A program made the position numbers. From Escherichia coli (GTDB taxonomy: Bacteria; Pseudomonadota; Gammaproteobacteria; Enterobacterales; Enterobacteriaceae), in assembly GCF_030013205.1 (NCBI RefSeq), contig NZ_CP122648.1: DNA of 64,000 bases; one strand, given 5' to 3'. Of this stretch, positions 21,001 through 24,000 are shown one piece after another. Each line of letters begins with the position of its first letter. Within the stretch, counting starts at the first letter, position 1.

Positions 21001-24000
21001 GGTAATCCGCAGCCGGTTTTTGCCAATACGGAAAAATTGAACGATGCTGTGGAAGAGCTGCGTCTGTTGCTTAATAACCACCATGACCTGAAGGTTGTGG
21101 AAACACCAATCTATGGTTATGTGTGGCTGAACATGGAAACGGCACATCAGCTTGAGTTGCTATCGAGTCTGATTTGCCGGGCCTTGCGCAAATAATTCCT
21201 GAACTTCAGAATCATCTTGCTGCTGCTTCGATTCAGCAAGGATAAAGGGTATGATAGTGAAAAGGGATAAAAGCATTGTCATCTGCGGCAGCTATGAGTA
21301 ATGTTGGCCCTAACGAATAGCGGTTGCTTAAACGAATCCGACTCTCACATTATCAGGGGTATAAAAATGGAAACTACCAAGCCTTCATTCCAGGACGTAC
21401 TGGAATTTGTTCGTCTGTTCCGTCGTAAGAACAAACTGCAACGTGAAATTCAGGACGTTGAGAAAAAGATCCGTGACAACCAGAAGCGCGTCCTGCTGCT
21501 GGACAACCTGAGCGATTACATCAAGCCGGGGATGAGCGTTGAAGCAATCCAGGGCATCATCGCCAGCATGAAAGGTGACTATGAAGATCGTGTTGACGAT
21601 TACATCATCAAAAATGCCGAGCTCTCCAAAGAACGCCGCGATATCTCCAAAAAGCTGAAAGCTATGGGCGAAATGAAAAACGGCGAAGCGAAGTAATTCC
21701 TGTTTTATTCAATGAGGGTTGCCCGGCAACCCTCATTGCTCATTGATTCTTTTCTGTGTATCAAAGTCATCATTCCCATCTGATAACCTATCGAAATTAG
21801 CGACAGACATCTTCTGTATGCAGCAAGGAAAAAAGTTCTGTAACTCCATTGTTATTAACCGCACTGGTTACTAACACGTTGTGCGCTCCAGCTTCCCGTA
21901 ACCAACTTTTCACCAAAGATATTTGTTCCATGCTGGCTAAATCTGCTTTGGTTACTACTCCAATGACCGGGCGATTCATTGACGAGGTAAAGCCTGGCGA
22001 AAAAGGGGACCACGGTGCGTCCGCATTAAGCACCAGGGCGATAATGTCCGCTTCGCAGGCGCTGACCAACAGAGCACTGTAGAGGCTGCGGTTTTCGAGG
22101 TATTCGCCTGGTGTATCAATGGTGGGCGGGGACCAGACGATTGCCTGCGTTTTCTGATAATGAATATTTTCGCCACGCAGACATTGCGTGAGTGACGTTT
22201 TTCCGCACTGGCTGGGGCCGATAAGCATCATACGTTGCATAACGTCAGGTCCGCGTAATGGGGCAGGCGGTAAAGCGCATCATTTCACCCAGCGTACGGG
22301 TAACCTGGCTAAGTGCATATTCAATGGCAGAAACATCACCAGTCAGCACTACGGCACCGGTAAAACGATCAAGAAAACCGATCTCTACAGCGCCTGATTT
22401 TGTGGCGATATCGCATGCGATGATAGATGCTTCGCTGGGGGTTATCGTCAGAATGCCAATAGCAGAAACGGTGTCTGGTAACCCCAATTTCTTAAACAGA
22501 TCCTTCCCAGGATTGGCGATGACATGTGCCAGCGTGACCTGCTTACCAGGGACATATTCCTGAATCATCCGTTCAGTTGTGTGCTGAGTTGTCATTATCC
22601 CTCCACCATCTGACGCCACATGGCTTCATGTGGACGGGCAATCACCGACCGATAGACCAACAAACCTTTTTCTCCCGCACGCTCGCTGGCGACAGAGACC
22701 GCGTTATTAACATCTGAAATATCGCCAGCAACCACCATGTAGCATTTTCCGCCAATGCCAAAAGCCATATGCACGCGAACGAGAATGACATTCGCAGCTT
22801 TGACAGCACAATCGGCAGCGTCAATGCAGGCAGCGACACTCCAGGTTTCGACTACGCCGACAGCCCGGTGCTGCTCAACATGGTTCAGTCCGCTGATTGC
22901 AGAAAGGAGACTGGGATGAATATTCGGCAGGACAAGACTGTCGACCAGCATTTCACCAGCAAGGGAAGCACCGCTGTTGATGGCCTGTTGCACCGCGCCC
23001 ACATCGCCACCGAGCATCAGCAGAAATTTTCCGGGGCATAGCGTTTTGCTGACCAGTAACTCAACGTTTACGCTTTTCAGCATGGCGTCGCCGGTTTCCA
23101 TCCCTTTCGCGATACTGCTAAGTTCTAAAATACCTACCGCTTTCGACATCGTTAACCTCTCACAAGCGTAATTGCGTTTTCTGTCACATCGCTGACCATG
23201 CCATCAATACTGGCATGAATGGGGGCACCTAATGTGCCGTGTGGAATTTGACCTACACATTGCCCATGAACGACGCGATCGCCTTTTTGTACACACGCAA
23301 TTGCGCTGGCACCGATGTGCTGGCGTAACAATAACGTCACTTTTTCGGTCTGAGGCACCTGTTCAGACAATGGCGCATCCTGATACCACGGGGTTAAGCC
23401 AAGTCTGGTTACCAGCCGTTTTACGGGAATCAGTCGATAATTTGCCATGGGATCTGCAGGATTTAAGGTACCTTCGTAACGGAGATTTTGTGCGCGTAAT
23501 TCCTGCTTAAGCAGGCGGTTTATGCGCATTGGTGAAATTCCTACCGGACAGGCGACGCTGGCGCAGACGTTGCACTCCGAACAGGTGAGCGCCGTCAGTA
23601 ACAGTTGTGGCGTAGCGAGCTGTTGGTAGTTAACCGCACGTACTAATAAATGGGGTGCCAGTTCGTGACCGATTAAATGACGTGGGCAGAGATCGGTACA
23701 CAAGCGGCATTGCTCACAAACAGTTTTCGCGACGGCAAGTACGCTGCGGTCATTCTGCATTCGACGTTGGATCAGTGAATGAGAGTTGGGTAAAACCAGC
23801 AAGCCGCCAGTGGTTTTGCTGACGGGGGGGGGGCGAGCGATGTGACCAAACTTCCCATCATCGGCCCGCCATTGATAATACCAGGAGCATCCACAGTTGC
23901 GCCGCCCGCCAGCGCCAGGACTTCACGTAAAGACATGCCGATGGGGACGGTTACCGTTATTGGTTTCGCCACTGCACCATTAACGGTGAGTGTGCGGCGC

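Follow-up and report, generated by a model that had tools for sequence, protein, structure and literature searches.

In Salmonella and Citrobacter, the slot between pduV and the convergent gene tmaR (yeeX) is filled by pduW and pduX, whereas in the stretch of Escherichia coli DNA analysed here (64,000 nucleotides, hereafter the window) the same slot is a spacer of 100 nt and pduV closes the pdu operon. The question raised by this locus is whether both genes were recently deleted from one strain, were moved to another place of the genome, or are absent from the ordinary operon of the genus, and how the pathway would work without them. The features found at the operon end are the following:

21367 to 21696, plus strand: tmaR (yeeX), DUF496/PTS regulator gene, convergent with pduV (NF040881, 188 bits; NF003844, 198 bits; annotation)
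21697 to 21796, no strand: spacer of 100 nt between the convergent tmaR and pduV stops (sequence, Escherichia alignment)
21797 to 22240, minus strand: pduV, terminal pdu gene (ORF; TIGR02528 and PF10662 matches; annotated as 'EutP/PduV family' in E. coli K_EC180)

First of all, pduV is an intact ORF of 147 amino acids and, as the initial annotation had placed it, its stop is at 21797, the TAA codon occupying 21797-21799 on the minus strand. The protein matched the EutP/PduV model TIGR02528 with 186.1 bits (cutoff 138.35) over residues 2-141 of 147, the PF10662 match spanned positions 1-141 and the P-loop GPSQCGKT is undamaged. This full-length match above a curated cutoff, together with the P-loop, places it in the PduV/EutP family. 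The dN/dS of pduV was about 0.10-0.12 within Escherichia, which indicates that the gene is under purifying selection in this genus, and 0.03-0.08 within Citrobacter. The PduW (404 aa, 837 bits on NF009063) and PduX (288 aa, a GHMP kinase, PF00288) proteins of Citrobacter were used as tblastn queries, and neither gave a match across the whole 64-kb window at E≤1e-5. No ORF of about 400 aa of the acetate/propionate kinase family (PduW type, NF009063) was found by this means downstream of pduV or elsewhere in the window, nor was any GHMP-type ORF of about 290-300 aa corresponding to PduX, the L-threonine kinase. The claim that the operon terminates at pduV (21797-22240), without pduW or pduX, is thus borne out.

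The remaining part of the locus was delimited by its ORFs and by the annotation of the identical locus of K_EC180. The window is 100% identical over 2.4 kb to this E. coli strain and to a series of porcine ETEC genomes. Its features are:

21797 to 36330, minus strand: pdu operon pduABCDEGHJKLMNOPQSTUV with PDU1B layout (ORFs and gene-by-gene annotation of the identical K_EC180 locus, offset about +800)
23152 to 24497, minus strand: pduS, split into ORFs of 241 and 216 aa (ORFs; alignment to three other Escherichia pduS)
36843 to 38769, plus strand: pduF and pocR, divergent transporter and regulator genes (identical-locus annotation, ORFs)
38858 to 39032, plus strand: cobalamin riboswitch, once ahead of the now-missing cbi genes (Rfam RF00174, 113.8 bits)
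39182 to 39688, plus strand: short cbi-remnant ORF, weakly similar to the CbiG N-terminus (NF004463)
39821 to 42197, plus strand: cobU-cobS-cobT, the sole retained cob genes, for cobinamide salvage (annotation, ORFs)

The order beyond the pdu genes is therefore pocR, riboswitch, cbi-remnant ORF, cobU-cobS-cobT and ldtA. The remnant ORF matched NF004463 only over profile positions 1-125 of 351 (E=1e-18), its 67.6 bits being far under the 546-bit cutoff, and gave no match in Pfam. Relative to Salmonella, the window is missing both pduX and the cbi genes, in agreement with the parallel loss that had been proposed. As a separate observation, the reading frame of pduS is shifted by +2 at a run of ten C (about 23823-23834), and this gene is also annotated as frameshifted in K_EC180.

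An operon of this kind is already published. Axen, Erbilgin and Kerfeld (2014) defined the PDU1B type as having all the pdu genes of PDU1A except PduX and PduW, with cobUST only, and reported it in E. coli E24377A, LF82 and UMN026 and in Shigella sonnei 53G and Ss046 (PMC4207490 Text S1); likewise, the RNA-seq table for LF82, covering the 'entire' pdu operon, stops at pduV (PMC6379400). The K_EC180 locus identical to the window is annotated with pduA, B, C, D, E, G, H, J, K, L, M, N, O, P, Q, S, T, U and V and no PduW or PduX, cobUST is adjacent while the remaining cob (cbi) operon is not co-localised, and the window comes from E. coli, that is, from the Escherichia/Shigella host range of this type. 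The window and PDU1B are alike in the pduA-V gene set, the divergent pduF/pocR, the presence of cobUST only, the L,D-transpeptidase gene (ldtA) and the host genus; the architecture is no different, and the lineage of the window only adds the pduS frameshift. The PDU1A loci of Salmonella enterica LT2 and Citrobacter share with the window the position between cob/pocR/pduF and the convergent tmaR-yeeA-sbmC-dacD genes as well as the order from pduA to pduV, the PduU and PduV proteins of Citrobacter being about 91% and 78% identical to those of the window. However, two more genes stand before tmaR in PDU1A, pduW (404 aa), which overlaps the end of pduV, and pduX (288 aa), and the cbi operon is full, whereas the window is without these about 2.2 kb and without cbi. 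The operon lacking pduW and pduX is, as PDU1B, ordinary for the genus.

When compared with Salmonella alone, the operon end could suggest a recent pduW/pduX deletion specific to this strain or lineage, and thus an unusual arrangement for E. coli. The distribution of the junction makes this virtually impossible. Among 5426 complete E. coli genomes, the yeeA-tmaR|pduV-pduU-pduT stretch was present in 643 and the spacer with the whole pduV in 640, these some 640 genomes having an identical junction, and none of the 5426 had pduWX between pduV and tmaR by blastn. The spacer query itself was matched in 5417 of them (99.8%), including K-12 MG1655 and O157:H7, and the matches in pdu-negative genomes, sampled down the ranking, almost always included the last 183 nt of pduV. 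In K-12 MG1655 this stub is annotated as a 60-aa CDS of the EutP/PduV family abutting CP4-44 prophage remnants. K-12 and the window share the spacer, the hairpin within it (described below) and the final 183 nt of pduV (94.7% identity), but everything upstream of about pduV codon 87 is replaced in K-12 by the CP4-44 prophage and transposase remnants, while the window keeps the whole operon. A literature search on yoeF and pduV gave nothing tying the K-12 stub to a named pseudogene.

The junction is also found outside E. coli. A PduV scan with one genome per species, followed by tblastn, yielded 29 loci. In every Escherichia scanned (two divergent or cryptic 'E. coli' representatives, E. whittamii and E. 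albertii) pduV directly adjoins tmaR/yeeX, and pduV stubs were present in three further contigs. All the pdu-positive Escherichia examined hence stop at pduV, and an operon end at this gene is, in the genomes compared, the normal layout of the genus and no peculiarity of a strain. Since the reference operon of this lineage ends there as well, the initial annotation was right about the end itself and loses the implication that something is missing from this operon in particular.

In the same scan, pduV-pduW-pduX was found in 21 of 21 loci of Citrobacter, Pseudocitrobacter, a Pluralibacter MAG and related taxa, and tmaR-yeeA-sbmC came after pduX in the 19 of them with contigs long enough. A Salmonella enterica record filed among plasmids showed pduS-T-U-V-W-X and then the convergent DUF496 gene, yeeA, sbmC, dacD and phsC. 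Because yeeX/tmaR-yeeA-sbmC follow the operon in Citrobacter, Salmonella and Escherichia, the chromosomal position of the locus is, from these alignments, conserved across genera, and it is Escherichia that is, cleanly, without about 2.2 kb. We consider it highly probable that the window holds a standard Escherichia-type PDU1B locus, that pduWX was lost in the ancestor of the genus and that the function was kept without both genes. According to this proposal, the Escherichia ancestor would have lost about 2.2 kb (pduW plus pduX) between pduV and the convergent tmaR/yeeX, leaving pduV terminal and a 100-nt spacer with a hairpin proximal to tmaR. Later, most E. coli would have lost the remaining operon, the 183-nt 3' stub of pduV staying beside tmaR. 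In an alignment of the spacer from E. coli, K-12, E. whittamii, E. albertii and cryptic Escherichia the mean column identity is 86%, and for this reason one event in the ancestor would be the simplest account.

The opposite direction was also considered, namely that the Escherichia state is ancestral and that pduW-pduX was inserted between pduV and tmaR in the lineage of Salmonella and Citrobacter. Consistent with it, neither pduW nor pduX has left a clear remnant in the Escherichia spacer, for which a blastn-short comparison with 21 Citrobacter-type loci produced nothing meaningful, so that a deletion scar is unproven. Against it, pduV-pduW-pduX occurs in Salmonella, in many Citrobacter, in Pseudocitrobacter, in the Pluralibacter MAG and in an unclassified soil Proteobacteria MAG, and yeeX comes after pduX wherever contigs extend far enough. 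In addition, PduX homologues are present in Klebsiella (73% identity) and Listeria (about 40% identity) records, and the Lactobacillus reuteri pdu pathway has been described with a PduW. The end of pduV argues in the same sense. The similarity between the pduV of Escherichia and that of Citrobacter and Salmonella extends to about codon 143-145; in the latter genera the stop of pduV and the start of pduW overlap, and it is exactly at this overlap that the C-terminus of the E. coli protein diverges, with the retained hexamer ATGTCT matching codons 1-2 of pduW. All this makes an insertion very unlikely, although parsimony is the sole basis on which the direction, deletion in Escherichia or gain in the sister genera, is decided.

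Some other traces of the ancestral deletion that we favour were looked for in the spacer. The left arm of the hairpin shares 14 of 16 nt with the pduX stop and hairpin of Citrobacter, which is only suggestive, and a 26-nt stretch (21734-21759) resembles pduX codons of C. amalonaticus, none of 500 shuffles scoring as high. Since the other best spacer matches to pduX 3' ends are not collinear with this stretch, a pduX-derived deletion scar is not claimed. The ATGTCT hexamer, the hairpin arm and the 26-nt stretch would be, as proposed end points of the deletion, suggestive.

Both genes could also have been moved rather than lost, being encoded elsewhere on the chromosome or on a plasmid. For this reading there is one precedent: E. 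coli strain 48, a deer isolate, has a pduW (75.5% identity) at the end of a second pdu operon flanked by IS66/IS21 and far from tmaR. This operon is likewise without pduX and is a foreign locus, from which it follows that extra copies can come by horizontal transfer. It was, however, the sole genuine pduW obtained by distant blastn of Citrobacter pduW-pduX DNA against the 20,395 replicons of the 5426 complete genomes, the other six of the seven matches being faint ones to tdcD. No match to pduX was obtained in any of the 5426 genomes, and nothing for either gene in the K_EC180-type ones. The sensitivity of this search is about 65-70% identity or higher, and the genome-wide absence refers to the complete genomes identical to the window over 2.4 kb. 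Furthermore, a tblastn of PduX against 72,556 plasmids gave seven matches of at least 60% identity, all of them in Salmonella or Klebsiella records, and in a pdu-positive AIEC strain the only PduW homologue is TdcD, 44% identical to the Salmonella PduW (PMC7360682). Relocation is, in consequence, extremely unlikely, and the absence first noticed in the window extends, at the sensitivity of the blastn search, for pduX, to every complete E. coli genome and, for pduW, to all except that of strain 48.

The spacer left at the end of the operon had been described as holding a bidirectional terminator shared with yeeX within 60 nt of pduV. The feature concerned is:

21710 to 21738, no strand: conserved hairpin with a 13-bp stem and a 3-nt loop (folding, Escherichia covariation)

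The tmaR stop is 13 nt away from it and the pduV stop 58 nt, and its folding was more stable than that of shuffled sequences (plus strand, z = -3.0; minus strand, z = -4.9). In an alignment of eight Escherichia sequences, 98% of the cells were paired and two pairs showed compensatory changes, giving modest support to covariation as 18 of 500 shuffles reached the same score. No Rfam family was matched by the spacer, even at E≤1. The hairpin is G+C-rich and located between convergent genes, as a bidirectional intrinsic (Rho-independent) terminator should be, but the immediate 3' U-run that is expected on both strands is absent. On the pdu (minus) strand the tail after the stem, AAUAAAACAGG, has no U-run, and on the tmaR (plus) strand the tail, CUCAUUGAUUCUUUUCU, has an interrupted and displaced one, becoming U-rich only after a gap. 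Because a consensus terminator scan made no call here on either strand, the label of bidirectional terminator was dropped, while the presence of a hairpin at the described distance was confirmed. It is probably the terminator, the 3' end or a 3'-end stabiliser of tmaR. As a canonical terminator of the pdu strand it finds no support in the sequence; for the pdu transcript, Rho-dependent termination would be an equally good guess.

The consequences of an operon without pduW and pduX depend on the activity of their products. PduW turns propionyl-phosphate into propionate, forming ATP, and PduX acts as an L-threonine kinase; in Salmonella, the two enzymes are cytosolic and located outside the microcompartment (PMC7181861). 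Their loss would have been tolerated as that of cytosolic accessory enzymes which are not components of the microcompartment. PduX had been related to the synthesis of the lower ligand of B12; in fact, it supplies the threonine-phosphate precursor of the aminopropanol linker, which is joined to cobyric acid by CbiB, and the enzyme thus serves the aminopropanol-phosphate linker of the nucleotide loop (PMC8123684). E. coli is a cobinamide salvager (PMC6461909). PduX would be pointless in a lineage without cbiA-P and limited to cobinamide/B12 salvage through CobUST. We infer that it became dispensable because the de novo corrin synthesis encoded by the cbi genes is gone, which would make the joint loss of pduX and these genes coherent. 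That the PDU1B operon is functional is indicated by AIEC CUMT8, in which a pduC deletion abolishes growth on 1,2-propanediol (PMC9220930).

With respect to the step of PduW, ackA is a core gene and tdcD was found in 5391 of the 5426 complete E. coli genomes, TdcD being 43% identical to PduW. The housekeeping kinases AckA and TdcD would convert the propionyl-phosphate made by PduL into propionate, with production of ATP. It is reasonable to infer from this gene content a flux of propionyl-phosphate through AckA/TdcD-type kinases in E. coli lacking pduW.

A different candidate for this step is PduV itself, which, as a microcompartment-associated protein of the EutP family, could act as the propionyl-phosphate kinase of Escherichia in place of PduW, instead of the housekeeping enzymes. 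In Salmonella, acetate kinase activity was shown for EutQ and for EutP, a paralogue of PduV (Moore and Escalante-Semerena 2016, summarised in PMC5821096), and PduV belongs to the EutP/PduV family. If this were true, PduV would gain a catalytic role and the purifying selection on the terminal gene, with its dN/dS of about 0.1, would be explained. However, the score of PduV against the EutP equivalog model, with a cutoff of 258, was only 45.7 bits, and the Salmonella PduV is a low-abundance microcompartment-associated protein which has been proposed to position the compartments (PMC7181861). Moreover, dN/dS is slightly higher in Escherichia than in Citrobacter, and therefore a mild relaxation is favoured over recruitment to a new essential role. 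For these reasons we regard such a substitution as highly unlikely, and AckA and TdcD as the reasonable candidates.

To the published description of PDU1B, the present analysis adds the counts of the operon (640/5426) and of the scar left at its end (5417/5426), the same junction in E. albertii and E. whittamii, the single foreign pduW locus and the correction concerning the terminator. The pduV|tmaR junction and the 183-nt stub mark the locus as ancestral to Escherichia and later deleted in about 88% of the sequenced E. coli. The pdu-positive E. coli, among them AIEC and ETEC lineages, need an external supply of cobinamide or B12 and, as deduced for the flux of propionyl-phosphate, would have to draw on non-pdu kinases for the step of propanediol fermentation that yields ATP.

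Escherichia coli genomes that are pdu-negative, K-12 and O157:H7 among them, typically retain the final 183 nt of pduV, cut at one common left end point. For K-12 MG1655 (locus L031), this remnant borders on the CP4-44 prophage and a fragment of a transposase.

L031 3101-3283, equivalent to window 21797-21979: 3' stub of pduV

Other end points were found in a few genomes, where the match to the query is 399, 277 or just 92 nt long. These data suggest that the stretch from pduA into pduV was lost in one old and widely spread deletion, to which rarer independent deletions have to be added.

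The divergence of the pdu genes was also considered. Between the window and two species representatives named E. coli (L003, which is E. coli E69, and L002), the dS values of pduT, pduU and pduV were 0.3-0.5, as large for the pdu genes as those between the window and E. albertii, while the dS of tmaR in the same comparison was only 0.17. Either L003 and L002 are cryptic clades or deeply diverged alleles of the pdu locus exist within E. coli.

A second, complete pdu operon was detected at an unrelated chromosomal site in E. coli strain 48, isolated from deer.

L032 (NZ_CP166879.1) 1-13188: second, complete pdu operon of strain 48

This operon ends with pduV-pduW and lacks pduX, and fragments of IS66 and IS21 come after pduW. 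Its pduW is 75.5% identical to that of Citrobacter and was the sole pduW found among the 5426 complete E. coli genomes searched. The second operon was evidently gained by horizontal transfer.

Signs of mobile elements were noted in the window itself. Between plaP and sbcB lies an inserted IS200C-type tnpA (15841-16432), accompanied by a match to the STnc490 RNA (140 bits). Farther along lie three tRNA genes with identical scores, and after them two RNA matches; an ORF of 1330 aa (53020-57012) accompanies them.

43253-43325: tRNA gene
45661-45733: tRNA gene
47482-47554: tRNA gene
50991-51118: EFASI RNA
52552-52640: C4 antisense RNA

This region resembles a prophage or other mobile element that has integrated beside tRNA genes.

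Upstream of cobU, a possible trace of the cbi genes was noted.

39182-39688: ORF of 168 aa, between the cobalamin riboswitch and cobU

The ORF resembles CbiG weakly, over the N-terminal third of that protein (E=1e-18, far below the cutoff), and gave no match in Pfam; it appears to be a residue of a deleted cbi operon.

Regarding expression, RNA-seq of AIEC LF82 showed that bile salts induce each pdu gene, pduB through pduT, 2- to 4-fold, and that pduU (1.1-fold) and pduV (-1.2-fold), both with high basal counts, are not induced (PMC6379400, Table 4).

21797-22598: pduU-pduV region matching these table rows

Signal from the convergent tmaR that crosses a weak hairpin, as read-through or as antisense, may explain this pattern; another possibility is a separate transcript at the 3' end.

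Finally, the window pduS is split into two ORFs of 241 and 216 aa by a +2 frameshift within a run of ten C, where other Escherichia have ACACGCCA.

23152-24497, minus strand: split pduS, with the C-run at about 23823-23834

The same frameshift also occurs in pduS of the E. coli strain K_EC180, where it is annotated, and, therefore, this cobalamin reductase gene is a pseudogene in the lineage of the window or, possibly, contains a slippage-prone tract.
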